Source of the DNA: a virus
Lineage: Duplodnaviria; Heunggongvirae; Uroviricota; Caudoviricetes
Direction: 5' to 3' (one strand)
Virus record (IMG/VR): IMGVR_UViG_2695420821_000006
Length of the DNA stretch: 7,082 nt
Part shown: in pieces, positions 38 to 7,082 of the stretch
Numbering within the stretch: the first letter of the stretch is position 1
How the letters are laid out: each line of letters begins with the position of its first letter
The notes under the pieces: generated by a model
The model's input: only the letters and a program-made list of their open reading frames with translations
The model's database searches: none
What the model was told of the DNA's origin: nothing
Program-made: the position numbers and the translations under genes

Positions 38-1576
38 TTATTCAGTCGGCAGTGCTACGCGCCAGGGGAGCAGTTCGCCGACCCGGTTTATCGGCCAGTC
101 GGCTATGACGTCAAGGACATAGCGGAGGTAGCTTTCTGGCTCCACTCCGTTCAGTTTGCACGTCCCGATCAGGCTGTACAGCAGCGCTCCCCGCTCTCCT
201 CCATGATCCGAACCGAAGAACAGGTAGTTTTTGCGGCCCAGACTGACCATCCGCAACGCATTTTCAGCGATGTTATTGTCCGCCTCAGCCCAGCCATCAT
301 CTGCATAGTACGTCAGCGCCGGCCACTGGTTCAGGGCGTATGCGAACGCTTTCGCCAGTTCTGAGTGTCGCGACAGGGTTTTCATCTTTTCACGCAGCCA
401 GCTTTCCAGGGATTTCAGCAGCGGTTTCGTTTTCAACTGACGTTCGGCAAGGCGCTGCTCCGCCGTCATTCCCCTTATCTCTGCCTCGATGGCGTACAGT
501 TCGCCGATCCGTTTCAGCGCTTCCTCCGTCAGGGCTGACGGGGTGCGAACGTGCACATCGTGGATTTTACGGCGGGCGTGAGCCCAACAGGCGGCTTCCG
601 TTATCCGGCCATCCCGGTACAGCTCGTTGAACCCGGCGTATGCATCCGCCTGCAGTACACCACTGAACCCCGCAAGATGGGTCTGCGGATGGATGCCTTT
701 TCTGTCCGGGCTGTAAGCGAACCACACCGCCGGCGCCAGCGTTGACCCGGCGTTACGGTCGTCACGAACGTAGGTCCATAACCGCCCGGTCTTCGTTTTC
801 TTATTGCCTGGCAACAGCACCGGGACAGGCGTGTCATCAGCATGGAGCTTACCGTCAGTCAGCACATAGTCCTGAAGCGCTTCTTCCAGCGGTGACAGTA
901 GCCGGCAGCATGCATCCACCCAGCCCGACAGCAGTGAACGACTCAGCTCCACGCCCTGGCGGCCGTACATTTCAGACTGGCGGTACAGCGGGGTGTGCTC
1001 TGCATACTTTGAGATCAGCACGCGGGCCAGCAGCCCCGGTCCTGCGATACCCCGCTCGATGGGCCGTGAAGGCGCGGGGGCCTGCACGATGGCATCGCAC
1101 TGAGTACAGGCATGCTTTTCACGTACAGTCCGGATAACCCGGAAGGCGCTGCGCATCAGCTCCAGCTGTTCGGCGGCATCCTCACCCAGATAGCTCAGCG
1201 AGCCTCCACATTCCGGGCAGCATGACGCTGCCGGCAGCAGCCGTTTTTCATCGCGGGGGAGTGATTCGGGGAACGGTTTGCGGGTGCGGGTTTGACGCAG
1301 CGGGCGCTGCACGGCCGGGTCGTCAACCCGACCGGTAAGGGTATCACTTTCTTTCTGAAGTGCCTTCAGGTCAGCTTCCATCTGTGCGATACGACGGGAG
1401 ACTTTTTCCGAGCGGCTGCCGAAGTTCATCCGGCGCAGCTTATCCAGCTGTGCCTGCAGATGGTCTATTTCGCGTTCACGCTCGTTCAGCTTTTCCTGCA
1501 GGGCACGGTTCAGCGCCTCCTGTTCGGCAAGGAGACGTTTCAGTGCATTGATATCGTCAGGAAGTGAGCTGCTCAT
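38..1576 (-). CDS. tnpC: IS66-family transposase (TnpC / Orf3), 512 aa
   Basis: 512-aa ORF with an N-terminal coiled-coil-like region ([19 protein letters not shown]...), a CxxC...CxxC zinc-finger-like pair (CCPECGG...CTQCD) and a long catalytic core; matches my recollection of IS66 TnpC architecture. It is the last of three co-oriented IS ORFs. Confidence 0.88.
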
Positions 1577-1624
1577 ACCGGGTATATTACCAGGCTCATT
1601 CAGCGTCGACCAGGATAAAGAGGC

Positions 1625-1972
1625 TTACAACATAGTCAGGGACGTAAGCAGTCTTTTAGGCTGCCGCCAGTCGATACCTTCCAGCAGCATCGCCAGCTGT
1701 GCCGGTGTGAGGAACACTTTGCCATCCCGGGCTGACGGCCAGGCGAAGCGGCCGCGCTCCAGCCGTTTGGTCAGCAGACACAGTCCATCGCCGGTAGACC
1801 AGAGGAGCTTTACCTGACTGCCATTACGCCCACGGAAGATAAAAACGTGACCTGACATCGGATCGTCTTTCAGCGTCGTCTGCACCTTTGCCGCCAGGCC
1901 GTTGAAGCCGTTTCTCATATCGGTGATGCCAGCGACCAGCCAGATCTTTGTCCCTGATGGTAATGGGATCAA
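1625..1972 (-). CDS. tnpB: IS66 Orf2 (TnpB-type accessory protein), 115 aa
   Basis: Translation MIPLPSGTKIWLVAGITDMRNGFNGLAAKVQ... has the characteristic IS66 Orf2 N-terminus; its start overlaps the tnpA stop by 4 bp. Confidence 0.85.
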   Translation of the reverse strand: MIPLPSGTKIWLVAGITDMRNGFNGLAAKVQTTLKDDPMSGHVFIFRGRNGSQVKLLWSTGDGLCLLTKRLERGRFAWPSARDGKVFLTPAQLAMLLEGIDWRQPKRLLTSLTML

Positions 1973-2373
1973 CGTTTGAGCTCCCGTATCAGCAGGTTCA
2001 GGATATTTTCGCTGATGGCACCATTCAGACGGAGTGATCCGTGCCGGAACGTCACTTCACAGCTGATATTGAGTGATTCAGGTGTCGCAGCAGCTACAGG
2101 TTGTGACCGGGGGGAGGTTGTAGGGACAACATCTTCGGCATCAAGTGTTATCGGGAGCAGCTCAGGCACGTTGTTTTCTGTTGTTGAAGGAGGACGTAGT
2201 TTTCCTTCGCGCCAGTACTGGCGCCACTTGAACAGCAAATTATCGTTGATCCCATGCTCACGAGCGAGTTGCGCTACGGAGATCTCTGGTCGATGCGAGA
2301 GTTCAACCATTTTGATTTTGAACTCAACGGGATAATTAGGGCTTTTTTTACGCACTGCGGTTAATGATTTCAT
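1969..2373 (-). CDS. tnpA: IS66 Orf1 (TnpA, helix-turn-helix transposase accessory protein), 134 aa
   Basis: N-terminal HTH-like region (EFKIKMVELSHRPEISVAQLAREHGINDNLLFKWRQ) typical of IS3/IS66 orfA proteins; first ORF inside the tnpA-proximal IR. Confidence 0.82.
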   Translation of the reverse strand: MKSLTAVRKKSPNYPVEFKIKMVELSHRPEISVAQLAREHGINDNLLFKWRQYWREGKLRPPSTTENNVPELLPITLDAEDVVPTTSPRSQPVAAATPESLNISCEVTFRHGSLRLNGAISENILNLLIRELKR

Positions 2374-3179: not shown

Positions 3180-3695
3180 ATGGCGTTAACACACCGCGAA
3201 CTCTGTCAGATTGCCTACAGGTTCCTTAAGCGCAACGGGTTCAAGGTTTGCTTTCATGACCGCTTTGTTGCTGTAACCAGTACTGGAGAACAACCAGATG
3301 CTATGGGATTCAGAAATTCAGCATCATGCCTGATAGAGGCGAAGTGTTCTCGTGCTGACTTGTTGGCAGATAGAAAAAAGCGTTTCCGTAAAAATCCCTC
3401 TCTTGGCATGGGGGACTGGCGATTCTTTATTAGTGAGCCGGGAATTATTTCAATTGAGGATTTACCACCTGGCTGGGGATTACTTCACGTTGTTAACGGA
3501 AGAGTACGGAAAGTATATGGGTGGCCCAAGGGTAATTGCTGTTGGGGTAATCCTGACGATAAGCCATTTACCGGAAATAAGCAGGTTGAATGCGATTACA
3601 TGTTATCTGCATTAAGGCGCATGGAGTTGAGAGGGCACCTTAATGAAATATATGACGGTGTAATTGTTAATAAGAAAGAAGGAAACGCGGCATGA
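3180..3695 (+). CDS. Putative PD-(D/E)xK-fold nuclease-like protein (possibly MmcB-like), 171 aa
   Basis: Contains QPDAMGF followed about 12 residues later by LIEAKCSRADLLAD, i.e. a D ... E-x-K arrangement resembling the restriction-endonuclease-like catalytic motif. Family assignment is motif-based only. Confidence 0.6.
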   Translation: MALTHRELCQIAYRFLKRNGFKVCFHDRFVAVTSTGEQPDAMGFRNSASCLIEAKCSRADLLADRKKRFRKNPSLGMGDWRFFISEPGIISIEDLPPGWGLLHVVNGRVRKVYGWPKGNCCWGNPDDKPFTGNKQVECDYMLSALRRMELRGHLNEIYDGVIVNKKEGNAA

Positions 3696-4261
3696 TCACT
3701 ATTACCAAAGAGCGACTACTGACAATCAAGCAGTGGCGCGAAACATACGGACCTGGTAGCAACGTTGTGCTTCCAGCAGAAGAAGCGGAAGAGCTGGCAC
3801 GGATTGCACTGGCATCACTGGCAGCAGTATCGGATGAACGAGCAGCCTATGAATTATTTATGGAGAAGCGTTTCGGAGAATCTGTAGATCGCCGCAGAGC
3901 AAAAAATGGCGATAGAGAATACATGGCATGGGATATGGCGCTTGGCTGGATTATCTGGTGTCACCGCGCCGCCATGCTTCAGGCTGGAAACTTTCGGGAA
4001 CATAAGGGTTCGTCAACCAATAATTTTCGGGAAATCTCGGAAACGTCAACCAACCATCCGGTAACTCCGGATGGTTGGATAAGCTGTAGTGAGCGAATGC
4101 CGGATGACGGGCAGTGGTGCGTAGTGAACACAGAATACGGGTATTACGTGCAATGCTGGTCTGAAGGTCAAGGATGGCTTGGTGATGATATCAGCATCCC
4201 TGAATGCGATGTAATCAATCGGATGCTTCTACCTGAACCGCCGCAGAAGGTGCGCCAATGA
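3692..4261 (+). CDS. Phage-type protein with C-terminal DUF551-like domain, 189 aa
   Basis: C-terminus PDGWISCSERMPDDGQWCVVN...YYVQCW fits the W-I-S-x-x-(D/E)-R-(L/M)-P signature I associate with DUF551, which is common in lambdoid nin/early-region proteins. ATGA overlap with the upstream gene. The linker between domains contains a DNA-level repeat. Confidence 0.7.
   Translation: MITITKERLLTIKQWRETYGPGSNVVLPAEEAEELARIALASLAAVSDERAAYELFMEKRFGESVDRRRAKNGDREYMAWDMALGWIIWCHRAAMLQAGNFREHKGSSTNNFREISETSTNHPVTPDGWISCSERMPDDGQWCVVNTEYGYYVQCWSEGQGWLGDDISIPECDVINRMLLPEPPQKVRQ
3989..4053. repeat. Two imperfect ~32-bp direct repeats inside the DUF551 gene linker
   Basis: 3989-4020 AACTTTCGGGAACATAAGGGTTCGTCAACCAA and 4022-4053 AATTTTCGGGAAATCTCGGAAACGTCAACCAA; about 23 of 32 positions identical, with conserved TTCGGGAA and CGTCAACCAA ends. 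Encodes NFREHKGSSTN / NFREISETSTN. Confidence 0.7.
4050..4078. repeat. Perfect 12-bp inverted repeat with 5-bp spacer inside the DUF551 gene
   Basis: CCAACCATCCGG-TAACT-CCGGATGGTTGG; the arms are exact reverse complements. Located directly 3' of the direct repeats. Confidence 0.8.
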
Positions 4262-4341
4262 ACTGGCCTGAAGCATTTGCAATTACAGGCGTTGCTATGG
4301 CTATCGCTTTTTTAGTATATGTTATTTGTCGGTGGGGGTAA
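4258..4341 (+). CDS. Putative small hydrophobic peptide (27 aa)
   Basis: MNWPEAFAITGVAMAIAFLVYVICRWG; its start overlaps the stop of the DUF551 gene (ATGA), suggesting translational coupling. One predicted transmembrane helix. Too short for confident calling. Confidence 0.4.
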   Translation: MNWPEAFAITGVAMAIAFLVYVICRWG

Positions 4342-4376
4342 AAACGTTCGCCGGGATTAACACCAAAGGAGGGAAT

Positions 4377-4475
4377 ATGTCGGATGATATTTCACTGGCA
4401 ATGGAAGGCGCGCTGGCCGTTATTTCTGTTGTGGGCGTTTACTGCCTGGTTGTGTTTTTGATGGATCGGATGTGA
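4377..4475 (+). CDS. Putative small hydrophobic peptide (32 aa)
   Basis: MSDDISLAMEGALAVISVVGVYCLVVFLMDRM; preceded by a strong RBS AAGGAGGG (4366-4373) 4 nt before the ATG. One predicted transmembrane helix. Confidence 0.45.
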   Translation: MSDDISLAMEGALAVISVVGVYCLVVFLMDRM

Positions 4476-4522
4476 AACTGAATTCATTGCGATATGGGCA
4501 TTCCCATATCGGGTAAAACGGT

Positions 4523-4550
4523 TTGCGGTAAAGCGAGAGTTAAGTAGAAT
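4523..4550 (+). promoter_or_regulatory. Putative sigma70 promoter of the hok/mok mRNA
   Basis: TTGCGG (4523-4528), 16-nt spacer, TAGAAT (4545-4550); predicted start near 4557-4560, where the sequence (GGGTGCTTGAGGCTGTCTGCCTC...) resembles the 5' end of plasmid R1 hok mRNA as I recall it. Confidence 0.45.
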
Positions 4551-4556
4551 TGCTGC

Positions 4557-4568
4557 GGGTGCTTGAGG
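4557..4568 (+). promoter_or_regulatory. hok mRNA 5' element (tac-like) complementary to the 3' fbi-like element
   Basis: GGGTGCTTGAGG is complementary, with one bulge, to CCTCAACGCACCC at 4931-4943. It is followed by a 9-bp stem CTGTCTGCC / GGCAGACAG (4570-4578 with 4596-4604). Confidence 0.45.
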
Positions 4569-4609
4569 CTGTCTGCCTCGGGCATGCCGACGTAAGGCAG
4601 ACAGAGAAA

Positions 4610-4676
4610 AGCCCCAGTTAACATTATGCGTCTTGCAGGACGCTTAACATTAATCTGAGGCCATATCTATGACTTG
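4610..4676 (-). ncRNA. sok: Predicted Sok-like antisense RNA (approximate boundaries)
   Basis: A minus-strand promoter (features 4684-4712) would start transcription near 4676, giving an antisense RNA across the mok SD and start codon as in hok/sok systems. The 3' end is not defined; only a weak hairpin (GCGTC…GACGC) and a short T-run are visible. Confidence 0.4.
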
Positions 4677-4881
4677 CACACTTAGATTAGCCTCTTACGC
4701 GCCGAAAGGCAAGGAGCAGCAGGCTATGAAGCAGCAAAAGGCGATGCTAATCGCCCTGATCGTCATCTGTATTACCGTCGTTGTAACGGTACTGGTAACG
4801 AGGAAAGACCTCTGCGAGGTACGAATCCGAACCGGCCAGACGGAGGTCGCTGTCTTCACAGCTTACGAATCTGAGAAGTAA
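4669..4881 (+). CDS. mok: mok-type reading frame (70 codons) that includes the hok frame and shares its stop
   Basis: ATG at 4669 with SD GAGG (4657-4660); in frame with hok. The arrangement is as I recall for chromosomal mokC/hokC. This is the target region for the antisense RNA. Confidence 0.5.
   Translation: MTCTLRLASYAPKGKEQQAMKQQKAMLIALIVICITVVVTVLVTRKDLCEVRIRTGQTEVAVFTAYESEK
4684..4712 (-). promoter_or_regulatory. Putative sok promoter
   Basis: On the minus strand: TTGCCT (complement of 4707-4712), 17-nt spacer, TAATCT (complement of 4684-4689); it lies inside the start of the mok frame, as expected for sok. Confidence 0.4.
4726..4881 (+). CDS. hok: Hok/Gef-family type I toxin (small membrane killer protein), 51 aa
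   Basis: MKQQKAMLIALIVICITVVVTVLVTRKDLCEVRIRTGQTEVAVFTAYESEK aligns by eye with Hok (…[27 protein letters not shown]): one transmembrane helix followed by the conserved TRK-LCE-R…EVA-F-AYES-K tail. RBS AAGGAG at 4711-4716. Confidence 0.88.
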   Translation: MKQQKAMLIALIVICITVVVTVLVTRKDLCEVRIRTGQTEVAVFTAYESEK

Positions 4882-4930
4882 GAGACCCGGCGAGGGAGAA
4901 ATCCCTCGCCACCTCTGATGTGTCAGGCAT

Positions 4931-4943
4931 CCTCAACGCACCC
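4931..4943 (+). promoter_or_regulatory. fbi-like 3' element of hok mRNA
   Basis: CCTCAACGCACCC is complementary to the mRNA 5' end (4557-4568). It lies between a perfect 9-bp hairpin (GGCGAGGGA-GAAA-TCCCTCGCC, 4889-4910) and the terminator. Confidence 0.45.
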
Positions 4944-4951
4944 GCACTTAA

Positions 4952-4976
4952 CCCGCTTCTGCGGGTTTTGTTTTTT
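4952..4976 (+). terminator. Rho-independent terminator of the hok mRNA
   Basis: CCCGC-TTCT-GCGGG stem-loop (4952-4965) followed by TTTTGTTTTTT (4966-4976). Confidence 0.7.
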
Positions 4977-4997
4977 CTTGACATTCTGGTTTACAAT
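4968..4997 (+). promoter_or_regulatory. Possible weak promoter for the downstream ORF
   Basis: TTGTTT (4968-4973), 18-nt spacer, TACAAT (4992-4997). A perfect TTGACA at 4978-4983 is too close to that -10 element to be its -35. Speculative. Confidence 0.25.
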
Positions 4998-5047
4998 TCG
5001 CACGCCAGCCTGAACAACTGGCACCTGCTGTGTCACCGGAGAACCCG

Positions 5048-5239
5048 ATGGCGCAACGTATAAAATCCCACAATTCTGAAGCCGTCCCGGCCATTAAGCG
5101 GGGGCGGCATTCGCACGTATTTAAAACCGACTGGTACCAGCATCCCCCATGCACTGAAGAACAGGCCGAATGGCTGATTCAGTGTTACCGCAGGCGCGGA
5201 TATTGGTGTGTCACGTTAACCGGAAAAAGGAAAGTTTGA
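5048..5239 (+). CDS. Hypothetical 63-aa ORF, possibly the 5' part of a frameshifted gene continuing into the TerB-like frame
   Basis: ATG at 5048 with RBS GGAGA (5038-5042); the ORF track starts it at an upstream GTG (5030). It ends at TGA 5237-5239, directly after an A5 run (5224-5228) where a +1 shift would enter the TerB-like frame. Confidence 0.3.
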   Translation: MAQRIKSHNSEAVPAIKRGRHSHVFKTDWYQHPPCTEEQAEWLIQCYRRRGYWCVTLTGKRKV

Positions 5240-5612
5240 GAAACGCGATCTGGCACAGGCGGTGATTAACGCCGCATACCTGGTGGCCTGTGCAGATGGT
5301 GAATGTGAGGCTTCCTAGAAAGCGAAGATCGAACAGGTACTGCGTAATCAGCCTGCGCTGTACGCGTTTACGTCAGAAATTAATGCGATTAGCGCAACCA
5401 TTATCGGTCAGCTGGATACGAACTTTAAAACTGGTCGTCGTGCGGCGTTACGTGAGATCGAGGATGTGAAACACGATACGCGTGAAGCGGAAGATGTGCT
5501 GGATGTGGCGGTGGCCATTGCGGAGGCAGACGGCGAAATTGAGCCGGAAGAGCGCAAGGTGCTGGAAGAGATTGCCGGTGTTCTGGGTCTTCGTCTGGAG
5601 AATTACCTGTGA
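5220..5612 (+). pseudogene. TerB-family (tellurite-resistance TerB-like domain) gene, apparently disrupted
   Basis: The frame reads …AQAVINAAYLVACADGECEAS*KAKIEQVL…VAIAEADGEIEPEERKVLEEIAGVLGLRLENYL*, i.e. two ADG-x5-E-x-(K/R) repeats typical of TerB-like domains. There is an in-frame TAG at 5316-5318 (probably from GAG), a TAA at 5217-5219 just upstream, and no ATG/GTG start before the domain. Confidence 0.55.
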
Positions 5613-5776
5613 CGGTAAAACTGCGCCTGACTGTGGCTGCACTCCTGCTGTTTCTGGTGGTGATGGTGGATTTCACCAGCAGAATCATGTCGGTGCTGGC
5701 GGATGGGGTGCTGGTCTGCGGCATTATGGTATTGCTGTGGCCGGTGATAAAAAGAAACAGCCTGCATAATGCTTGA
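5609..5776 (+). CDS. Putative small membrane protein (about 55 aa, GTG start) coupled to the TerB-like frame
   Basis: GTG at 5609 overlaps the TerB-frame stop (GTGA). Translation (M)TVKLRLTVAALLLFLVVMVDFTSRIMSVLADGVLVCGIMVLLWPVIKRNSLHNA is hydrophobic with two potential helices. Followed by a T-rich stretch (5777-5790). An alternative ATG start is at 5663. Confidence 0.3.
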   Translation: MTVKLRLTVAALLLFLVVMVDFTSRIMSVLADGVLVCGIMVLLWPVIKRNSLHNA

Positions 5777-6090
5777 TTTTTTTGTTTGCTGTTTATTAAA
5801 AACACTTCTGCATGGTGAATCCCCCTGTGCGGTGGGGCAATCAGCAAGAAGGAATATGGGGTAATCGCGGATTCAGGTGCTGATACTGAATTCACCGGGA
5901 GGCACCCGGCACCATGCTTTGCCACAAAAGTGTTATTTCTGTTTTTCTCAAACTATCATCGTTATCCCTTTATTTTCGGCTGCGCATGGCGCGGCCTTTT
6001 TTTTACGACCAGCCACTGGCAGATGGTCATCCTGTGATTTGATTCCGCTTCCGGCTTTTTAACTCTGTTCCTCTACACGGGAGAAATTCG

Positions 6091-7082
6091 ATGTCGATTA
6101 AACATTATGATGTTGTCAGGGCGGCGTCGCCGTCAGACCTTGCGGAAAAGCTGACACACAAACTGAAAGAGGGCTGGCAGCCATACGGCGGACCGGTTGC
6201 CATTACGCCGTACACACTGATGCAGGCGGTGGCTATTGAAGGAGAGCCACAGGTCGGCCCTTCATCTGAGCCGGATTGGTACTACGTCATCGTACTGGCC
6301 GGGCAGTCCAATGCCATGGCTTACGGTGAAGGGCTTCCGCTGCCGGATTCATACGATGCTCCGGATCCGCGCATTAAACAGCTGGCGCGCCGCAGTACAG
6401 TGACGCCGGGCGGGGCTGCCTGCAGATATAACGATATTATTCCGGCTGACCACTGTCTGCATGATGTGCAGGATATGAGTACGCTGAATCATCCGAGGGC
6501 TGACCTGAGCAAAGGGCAGTACGGCTGTGTCGGCCAGGGTTTACATATTGCCAAAAAACTGCTCCCGTATATCCCGAATAACGCGGGGATCCTGCTGGTA
6601 CCATGCTGTCGTGGTGGTTCGGCATTTACCCAGGGCGCGGAGGGGACATTCAGCGAGTCCACGGGGGCCAGTCAGGATTCGGCACGCTGGGGGGTGGGCA
6701 AGCCGTTATATCAGGATCTGATTTCCCGCACAAAAGCGGCATTGCAGAAAAATCCCAAAAACGTTCTGCTGGCCGTCTGCTGGATGCAGGGTGAGTTTGA
6801 CATGAGCGCCGCCACCCACGCACAGCAACCTGCGCTGTTTACAGCCATGCTGACACAGTTTCGTGCTGACCTCTCCGTGTTTAACGCGCAGTGCCATGGT
6901 GGCAGCGCTGCAGATGTGCCGTGGGTTTGTGGTGACACGACGTATTACTGGAAAAATACATACGCTACCCAATACGACACCGTGTACGGCGGGTATAAAA
7001 ACAGGGAGAGTGAGGGCGTTTATTTTGTGCCCTTCATGACAGACGGTAACGGCGTCAATACCGCCACTAACGCGCCGGCAGA
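6091..7082 (+). CDS. nanS: Prophage-type NanS-p-like 9-O-acetyl-sialate esterase (DUF1737-like N-terminal domain + SASA/GDSL-like esterase domain); 3' end truncated by the window
   Basis: RBS GGGAGA 8 nt before the ATG at 6091. N-terminus MSIKHYDVVRAASPSDLAEKLTHKLKEGWQPYGGPV… resembles the DUF1737 domain, followed by YYVIVLAGQSNAMAYGEG with the GQSN catalytic-serine motif of sialate O-acetylesterases. Open frame runs to the window end (330 codons, no stop). Confidence 0.78.
   Translation, partial: MSIKHYDVVRAASPSDLAEKLTHKLKEGWQPYGGPVAITPYTLMQAVAIEGEPQVGPSSEPDWYYVIVLAGQSNAMAYGEGLPLPDSYDAPDPRIKQLARRSTVTPGGAACRYNDIIPADHCLHDVQDMSTLNHPRADLSKGQYGCVGQGLHIAKKLLPYIPNNAGILLVPCCRGGSAFTQGAEGTFSESTGASQDSARWGVGKPLYQDLISRTKAALQKNPKNVLLAVCWMQGEFDMSAATHAQQPALFTAMLTQFRADLSVFNAQCHGGSAADVPWVCGDTTYYWKNTYATQYDTVYGGYKNRESEGVYFVPFMTDGNGVNTATNAPA

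Follow-up and report, generated by a model that had tools for sequence, protein, structure and literature searches.

The 7,082-nucleotide (nt) stretch of viral DNA analysed here (IMG/VR record IMGVR_UViG_2695420821_000006, Caudoviricetes; hereafter the window) comes from a rearranged lambdoid prophage of E. coli, in which the small early genes of the plus strand end with a DUF551 gene, followed by two very short open reading frames (ORFs), ORF1 of 27 amino acids (aa) and ORF2 of 32 aa, and then by a complete hok/mok/sok locus. We asked whether these two ORFs are genes and what their products might do. As 24 ORFs of at least 20 aa are found within positions 3800-5000 alone, chance readily yields ORFs this short, and the gene status of ORF1 and ORF2 therefore depends on comparison with related sequences. 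In-frame conservation, purifying selection, conserved ribosome-binding sites, genomic contexts and, for ORF2, published translation data point to two unrelated, genuine small genes of the lambdoid prophage early region, each encoding one transmembrane (TM) helix that most likely resides in the inner membrane, a reading to which we give a probability of roughly 65%. The elements concerned are the following:

4258-4341, plus strand: ORF1, encoding a predicted 27-aa single-pass membrane peptide of the family M-x-WPEAF...G-x-AMAVA...Y-x-ICRWG

4246-4252, plus strand: Shine-Dalgarno-like GAAGGTG of ORF1, located in the last part of the DUF551 gene and 5 nt ahead of the ATG

4377-4475, plus strand: ORF2, a 32-aa allele of a predicted 34-aa single-pass membrane peptide (RefSeq hypothetical protein family; ECs_5710 / XECs145 of strain Sakai)

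4366-4373, plus strand: Shine-Dalgarno AAGGAGGG of ORF2, read from the sequence and kept in all copies of what we call subfamily A

The product of ORF1 is MNWPEAFAITGVAMAIAFLVYVICRWG, and its ATG (4258-4260) overlaps the DUF551 stop codon TGA (4259-4261) as a 4-nt ATGA. This overlap, together with the coordinates, the lengths of 27 and 32 aa and the AAGGAGGG before ORF2, had been described in an earlier note on this DNA and was confirmed from the sequence. The Shine-Dalgarno of ORF1 reads GGAGGTG in most relatives, and a GGAGG-type site stands 5-8 nt before the ATG across several unrelated upstream contexts; the frame ending at the TGA that overlaps the ORF1 start is open for a median of 161 codons. 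Copies of ORF1 were collected by scanning viral contigs with a pattern fixing codons 1-11 only, and loci already in hand were added. Results showed 132 copies, which represent 71 different DNA sequences and about 50 different peptides. The exact 27-aa length is found in 117 copies, while the others are mostly variants of 23-29 aa whose tail is different yet hydrophobic, including in-frame length variants such as the 25-aa forms of loci L005 and L006; only two or three copies appear disrupted. Even copies at about 73% DNA identity, found in E. coli genomes, encode intact peptides of 24-27 aa with the N-terminus MxWPEAF and mostly the C-terminus ICRWG. Within codons 12-27, left unconstrained by the pattern, the entropy at codon positions 1, 2 and 3 was 0.49, 0.25 and 0.84, the third position varying most, and the ratio of nonsynonymous to synonymous differences (pN/pS), calculated on pairs of related sequences, was 0.36 in the frame of the ORF versus 0.92 and 2.4 in the other two frames.

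The genes that precede ORF1 differ widely. Pfam assigned 28 of 49 representative upstream proteins to DUF551, 2 to Ead/Ea22 and 1 to the dATP/dGTP pyrophosphohydrolases, and matched none of the others; with at least four unrelated C-termini in this set, ORF1 adjoins the stops of at least four unrelated types of upstream gene. A tblastn search with ORF1 matched 99 phage records, including 933W, VT2-Sakai, Min27 and BP-4795. In 933W, ORF1 lies directly 3' of L0139 and before sokW/hokW, where it is unannotated, and copies are also present in the ea region near xis/int. Phage records of 99-106 kb gave a 26-aa match in vB_EcoM-813R1 and a partial, weak match in Salmonella phage SJ46, and the copies in Klebsiella prophages have a TAATG overlap. 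When one genome per species was scanned with a stricter ORF1 pattern, the matches came only from E. coli and Shigella flexneri, apart from two that are compatible with chance, and therefore the breadth of ORF1 beyond Escherichia/Shigella depends on the weak tblastn matches (Klebsiella, Salmonella phages). Separately, a 65-aa ORF of a Pseudobdellovibrionaceae metagenome-assembled genome (locus L281, 7458-7655, minus strand), starting MTWPEAFAIVGVAFATGASIAAVVWACVF and preceded by GGGAGG, resembles the N-terminus and TM segment of ORF1 beyond the residues fixed by the pattern; this likeness may be coincidence, as about 0.5 chance matches are expected for the scan.

ORF1 was missing from the RefSeq annotation at all 10 E. 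coli loci fetched, and a few GenBank submitters list it as a hypothetical protein (ETJ68712.1, BAI35516.1, ASL59204.1). Judged by sequence comparison, ORF1 is a real and widespread family of 27-residue genes that annotation nearly always misses, Shiga toxin (Stx) phages included. Two other accounts of ORF1 were considered and rejected. A programmed frameshift joining DUF551 to ORF1 does not fit, as the ORF1 frame is open for only 7 codons before the ATG and the ribosome-binding site is conserved. A lipoprotein signal peptide does not fit either, since V-I or S-I before Cys24 makes no lipobox motif and cleavage there would leave three residues.

ORF2 starts with the ATG at 4377 and ends with the stop codon at 4473-4475, its product being MSDDISLAMEGALAVISVVGVYCLVVFLMDRM. 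The earlier note had taken both ORFs as unannotated, which is right for ORF1 (absent from RefSeq at the 10 loci, few GenBank calls) and wrong for ORF2, which has 34-aa hypothetical-protein relatives in RefSeq (WP_001278450/54/59/60, WP_072097460, Sakai ECs_5710). ORF2 is near-identical over residues 1-32 to the family of WP_001278450, WP_001278454 and WP_072097460 and belongs to it also by genomic position (loci L001-L006), with the same site between the DUF551 gene and hok and the same ribosome-binding site. It differs in being two codons shorter, as a GGA>TGA change in the window allele stops it early and removes the last two residues. The exact 32-aa protein was found on 184 contigs, and therefore represents a common allele and not obviously a pseudogene; the exact 34-aa sequence is in the protein collection too. 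A phmmer search of ORF2 against 1.84 billion representative proteins gave six close relatives only and no remote family. Moreover, the ORF1 and ORF2 families, when compared by hhalign, had a probability of 3%, and therefore ORF2 is not a diverged copy of ORF1. As an observation apart, E. coli O55:H7 RM12579 (locus L004, 1638-1849) carries a tandem duplication of ORF2 with a 107-bp period, in which both copies are annotated as WP_001278454.1 in RefSeq and the second starts with TTG.

Ribosome profiling (Ribo-seq), which the earlier note had proposed as a check, is available in published form and supports the translation of ORF2. Huecker et al. 2017 (PMC5597208) reported XECs145 as one of 465 translated intergenic ORFs of O157:H7 Sakai and predicted it to be an inner membrane protein with 1 TM helix. 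Expression was given in reads per kilobase per million (RPKM), and the ribosome coverage value (RCV) is the ratio of translatome to transcriptome RPKM. In lysogeny broth (LB), XECs145 showed a transcriptome RPKM of 79.1 and a translatome RPKM of 346.1, with an RCV of 4.35 and a coverage of 0.99 (PMC5597208 Table S2). The corresponding values were 121.3, 150.1, 1.14 and 0.84 in brain heart infusion (BHI) and 73.3, 1.1, 0.01 and 0.37 in BHI stress (PMC5597208). Neither the ORF1 nor the ORF2 peptide is present in the EDL933 Ribo-seq supplements, and our literature search by peptide sequence found nothing relevant. Both are absent from the Rac, Qin and DLP12 prophages of K-12, and therefore small-protein studies in K-12 are uninformative here.

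Local searches revealed a diverged 29-aa form of ORF2, MLVLKCALAIAAVMAIYCLAVVLMDRLSD, which aligns to residues 6-34 of the 34-aa form and which we call subfamily B. It starts with GTG, 5 nt after AGGAGG, and shares with subfamily A the core and the stop, while starts and flanking sequence are different. A match covering at least 80% of the query was found in 1769 of 5426 complete E. coli genomes (about a third), and in 40 of 40 rows taken from along the ranking no annotated feature underlay the match. The locus inspected, in a Qin-like prophage, has subfamily B immediately before hokD (AAA ATPase, ORF2-B, hokD, rem, ydfU, ydfT). What is new here is ORF1 as a widespread missed family and an unannotated ORF2 subfamily abutting the hokD promoter, the 34-aa form of ORF2 being already known.

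We also assembled a sample of loci retrieved by the non-coding hok promoter motif alone, which avoids the bias of back-translated patterns. Of its 92 usable loci, 45 showed full-length homology to ORF2, intact in all 45 (27 subfamily B, 18 subfamily A); ORF2 was absent from 31, reduced to the last ~7 codons in 14 and to short fragments in 2. In this sample pN/pS was 0.18 in the ORF frame versus 1.1 and 4.0 in the others for subfamily A, and 0.36 versus 0.64 and 0.70 for subfamily B. By the kind of conservation and synteny comparison that the earlier note had suggested, both ORF1 and ORF2 keep their frame and ribosome-binding site and are under purifying selection in their own frame only. In the 14 loci with a remnant, all on viral contigs, the ORF2-B tail ...FMDHLSD* is joined in frame to the terminal part of a larger, unrelated ORF, ...KKRRSDFMDHLSD*, and therefore a recombination breakpoint lies inside ORF2, just upstream of the hok promoter.

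The surroundings of ORF2 contain several further elements:

4557-4971, plus strand: hok/mok/sok type I toxin-antitoxin locus (mok 4669-4881, hok 4727-4881, terminator 4950-4967)

4522-4550, plus strand: inferred hok promoter (-35 TTTGCG 4522-4527, -10 TAGAAT 4545-4550)

4336-4351, no strand: left copy, GGGTAAAAACGTTCGC, of a direct repeat flanking the ORF2 module (repeat search, family D2)

4511-4526, no strand: right copy, GGGTAAAACGGTTTGC, of the same repeat (family D2), overlapping the -35 of the inferred hok promoter

4492-4509, no strand: 18-bp near-palindrome ATATGGGCATTCCCATAT between the ORF2 stop and the hok promoter, read from the sequence

The hok locus, placed just downstream by the earlier note, was confirmed by an Rfam RF01794 sok/hok match at 4557-4731 (114.8 bits), an NCBIfam Hok match and a terminator-like hairpin at 4950-4967. 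The hok promoter is assigned by its position just upstream of the start of the Rfam match at 4557, and a promoter scan of a subfamily B locus (L232) gave the equivalent hok promoter, TTGGCG-17-TAGAAT, right after the ORF2 stop. In nearly all copies the distance from the ORF2 stop to this motif is 22 nt for subfamily B and 54-56 nt for subfamily A, so that this downstream spacing is fixed in about 117 of about 125 informative ORF2 copies. The proximity to hok, which the earlier note had called notable for both peptides, is thus meaningful for ORF2 and not for ORF1: hok lies within 400 nt in 58 of the 132 ORF1 copies and is lacking within that distance in 74, and therefore the hok-adjacent position of ORF1 in the window is one context among several.

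In the subfamily A arrangement, the direct repeat copies enclose a 175-nt ORF2 module, and in loci without ORF2 (L007, L008 and 933W) the ORF1 stop runs straight into AAAACGGTTTGCGG and the hok promoter, with a single repeat copy. Therefore, ORF2-A looks like a cassette inserted at a junction of ORF1 and hok. Copies such as those of O104:H4 and Sakai have a perfect palindrome, ATATGGGAATTCCCATAT, in place of the near-palindrome of the window, and the subfamily B arrangement lacks this element, which may serve as a protein-binding site. No terminator was found between ORF2 and hok in the scans of the window and of L232, and a terminator-like hairpin flagged inside ORF2 (4432-4448) belongs to a class of sites whose number is within chance. 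Upstream of subfamily B, in otherwise divergent sequence, CATATT does not vary and is usually preceded, at a distance of 17 nt, by TTGAA(T/G); this TTGAA(T/G)-N17-CATATT pair stands about 45-75 nt upstream of the ORF2-B GTG, for example in loci L135, L136 and L232. It suggests a putative independent ORF2-B transcription unit, which would read into the hok promoter because no terminator separates them, and as the footprint of an own promoter it fits expression in uninduced lysogens.

What could such peptides do? Each has one hydrophobic stretch of 17-19 residues with charged residues on either side, as the earlier note had said in describing one hydrophobic helix with charged ends, and the summed apparent insertion energy of the hydrophobic window is about -3 to +1.5 kcal/mol for both, from which membrane insertion is predicted. 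Small inner-membrane accessory peptides are the most likely reading of ORF1 and ORF2, and a role as regulators of membrane proteins would be, from sequence features, our best guess for both. ORF1 would have no promoter of its own and would be made by termination-reinitiation coupling to whichever early gene precedes it, and hence together with the products of the early operon, whenever early operons are transcribed. With an acidic N-terminus (MxWPE) and a basic C-terminus (CRWG), the peptide would be oriented with the former out and the latter in, and its conserved face of small residues, G-x-A-x-A-x-A, with a Tyr/Cys pair, may pack against the helix of a partner membrane protein. ORF2 is a separate module travelling with the hok locus and behaves as a lysogen-expressed accessory ('moron'-like) peptide, presumably co-transcribed with its neighbours. 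Considering its high translation in growing, uninduced lysogens, ORF2 behaves as a non-lethal small membrane protein and not as a silenced toxin.

Similar proteins are known in E. coli. The small inner-membrane regulators AcrZ, MgtS, MgrB and CydX (PMC12648545, with general background) are likewise below 50 aa with one TM helix, are translated in growing cells and, where the mode of action is known, act by binding a larger membrane protein. They differ from ORF1 and ORF2 in showing no sequence similarity to them, and ORF1 and ORF2 are phage-borne; moreover, ORF1 would be coupled to soluble-looking early proteins and is not placed in the operon of a membrane complex. As in coupled overlapping gene pairs (ATGA or TAATG), ORF1 has a stop/start overlap and a Shine-Dalgarno inside the upstream gene, and coupling is predicted on this basis; unlike such pairs, it has only 27 codons and follows several unrelated genes, as a portable 'tail' module and no fixed partner.

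Several points weigh against the reading of both ORFs as genuine membrane peptide genes. Pfam, PHROGs and NCBIfam gave no family match for either peptide, the few signals obtained (PTR2, ATP synthase subunit c and two PHROGs of unknown function) being noise below threshold, and therefore the proposed mode of action is drawn from composition alone. The pairs of sequences behind the pN/pS values are phylogenetically non-independent, and in the comparison of subfamily A with subfamily B the value for the ORF frame (0.51) is hardly below that for the +1 frame (0.55), the third frame giving 1.28; in the same comparison the fraction of differing sites at codon positions 1, 2 and 3 was 0.42, 0.18 and 0.50, the second position being the most conserved. 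The promoter scan of the window gave no convincing promoter for ORF2 in its subfamily A arrangement. For ORF1, support for translation is comparative, the published Ribo-seq having left out ORFs below 30 aa by design (PMC5597208). For ORF2, XECs145 was scored in a 54-codon extended form (PMC5597208), which makes the exact start codon uncertain, and Sakai carries four copies of the region, so that the assignment of XECs145 reads is uncertain. In the window, a TTG-started 49-codon in-frame extension of ORF2 (4326-4475), overlapping the end of ORF1, matches the form scored as XECs145. The ATG at 4377 is the more likely start, considering its strong ribosome-binding site and that subfamily B has no extension.

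The alternative that survives best, although we regard it as unlikely, is that ORF2 is a functional third component of the hok/sok module, a membrane peptide modulating Hok, which might, for instance, weaken or time the formation of Hok pores or shield the lysogen from leaky Hok. It would explain the fixed distance to the hok promoter seen in about 117 of about 125 copies. In its favour, subfamily B stands directly before hokD in Qin-like prophages and is matched over 80% or more of the query in 1769 of 5426 complete genomes; with no terminator between the two, transcription could plausibly continue from ORF2 into hok, and hokW is reported to assist phage release (PMC8621323), a setting where a modulator could be useful. 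On the contrary, hok occurs without ORF2 in 31 of the 92 sampled loci and in many arrangements with ORF1 followed by hok, including 933W, while 8 copies of ORF2-B, representing 2 architectures, have no hok. Tight linkage over short evolutionary distances may also reflect a shared recombination module, and 14 loci have kept no more of ORF2 beside hok than the last ~7 codons. A wider version of this idea, in which ORF2 (A and B) would be an unrecognised component of hokD-type loci tuning or countering Hok and ORF1 a portable membrane 'tail gene' of early genes, is improbable to the same degree.

A type I toxin would be expected to be repressed in growing cells, to have a structured mRNA that is silent in translation, and to be paired with an antisense RNA. 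We asked whether one or both peptides could be membrane toxins of this type, normally silenced and depolarising when expressed, as the earlier note had suggested. They are indeed similar in size and composition to small type I toxins (one TM helix, 19-60 aa; review PMC12648545) such as Hok/Gef, TisB, IbsC, ShoB and Ldr, a genuine type I locus adjoins both, and one minus-strand promoter-like site lies within the 5' end of ORF2 (4401 to 4374). This site, however, is altered in natural variants (GCA>GTA, ATG>GTG) and absent from the subfamily B locus, and promoter-like sites are no more numerous than chance allows (4 found, 2.1 +/- 1.4 expected). No antisense RNA, long structured leader or sequence similarity to these toxins was found for ORF1 or ORF2: within 4258-4475, Rfam at E <= 1 had no match, the folding of the two strands is unremarkable (z = -0.37 and, for the minus strand, +0.31), and neither peptide matches Hok in NCBIfam or Pfam, while the true hok (4727-4881) does. 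ORF1, moreover, lacks a separate transcription unit and would be translated by coupling to ordinary early genes. Above all, ORF2 is translated efficiently in exponential growth (RCV 4.35 in LB), the opposite of the typical translational silencing. The toxin suggestion is therefore not supported, and we regard it as quite unlikely: neither a conserved antisense promoter nor an unusual RNA structure nor a described antisense RNA family was found, although an RNA of a kind not yet described may exist.

Very unlikely, in our view, is that the ORFs have no functional products and owe their conservation to constraint at the DNA or RNA level or to hitch-hiking in exchanged prophage modules. ORFs this short can arise by chance, most copies are above 88% DNA identity with surrounding intergenic DNA equally conserved, and the comparison of ORF2 A with B is weak (0.51 versus 0.55 in the +1 frame). 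Against this, the ORF1 copies at ~73% identity keep frame, length, start and ribosome-binding site while third positions vary, ORF2 A and B share core and stop despite different starts and flanks, ribosome footprints cover ORF2 (PMC5597208), and no structured RNA was detected on either strand. To our knowledge, no holin is as short as 27-34 aa. Finally, that the peptides are holin- or antiholin-like modulators of lysis timing, a further suggestion of the earlier note, is hardly credible: despite the single TM helix with charged ends in each and the report that the adjoining hokW locus aids Sp5 lysis and release (PMC8621323), all contexts are early (nin-like, from replication genes to the Q antiterminator gene, or ea-like near xis/int) and none a lysis cassette, no endolysin or spanin lies beside the peptides in the contexts seen, no holin family in Pfam or PHROGs matches at E <= 1, the dual-start motif is absent, and ORF2 is expressed in uninduced cells.

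Reading ORF1 and the 29-aa form of ORF2 as genuine small membrane-protein genes, missed because of annotation length cut-offs, has practical consequences. In spite of the textbook standing of hok/sok as a toxin-antitoxin system and the medical importance of Stx phages, annotation passes over a conserved 27-aa gene beside hokW in 933W-type phages and, in about a third of complete E. coli genomes, a 29-aa gene that abuts the hokD promoter. Experiments in which a 'hok locus' is deleted or cloned may unknowingly drop or include a peptide gene, should either peptide influence Hok activity, phage release or the physiology of the membrane. Were ORF2 a third component, many chromosomal 'two-part' hok/sok systems would really have three parts; were ORF1 a tail gene, lambdoid phages including Stx phages would attach it to diverse early genes, with its product acting on a membrane target of the host. 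The coordinates and consensus sequences given here allow both genes to be added to annotation.

The rest of the window places the two genes in their prophage, with two more features:

3692-4261, plus strand: DUF551-domain gene, from the ORF list (Pfam PF04448, residues 128-185, E = 2e-6; annotated as DUF551 protein in relatives)

About 38-2373, minus strand: IS66-family element with three ORFs of 512, 115 and 134 aa, bordering the first prophage gene

The same block of DUF551 gene, ORF1, ORF2 and hok is found in E. coli UC4224, O104:H4 and O157:H7 Sakai Sp6 between replication genes and the DUF968/RusA/Q genes, a position that in these relatives is the nin-like region of the early-right operon. 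The window lacks the usual DUF968/RusA/Q genes, and therefore the prophage is deleted or rearranged. At the other end, DUF7167 covers only residues 35-86 of the ORF at 2372-2653, and the N-terminus of this ORF may derive from the junction of the IS66 insertion. An Rfam isrK match at 4890-4971 is below threshold (29.3 bits, gathering score 50) and overlaps the 3' end and terminator of hok. Downstream of hok, positions 5200-7082 are 99.9% identical to late-region prophage DNA with TerB-family, DUF3927 and SASA/NanS-type esterase genes, and an Rfam match to the small RNA STnc100 (100.8 bits) lies at 5781-5953.

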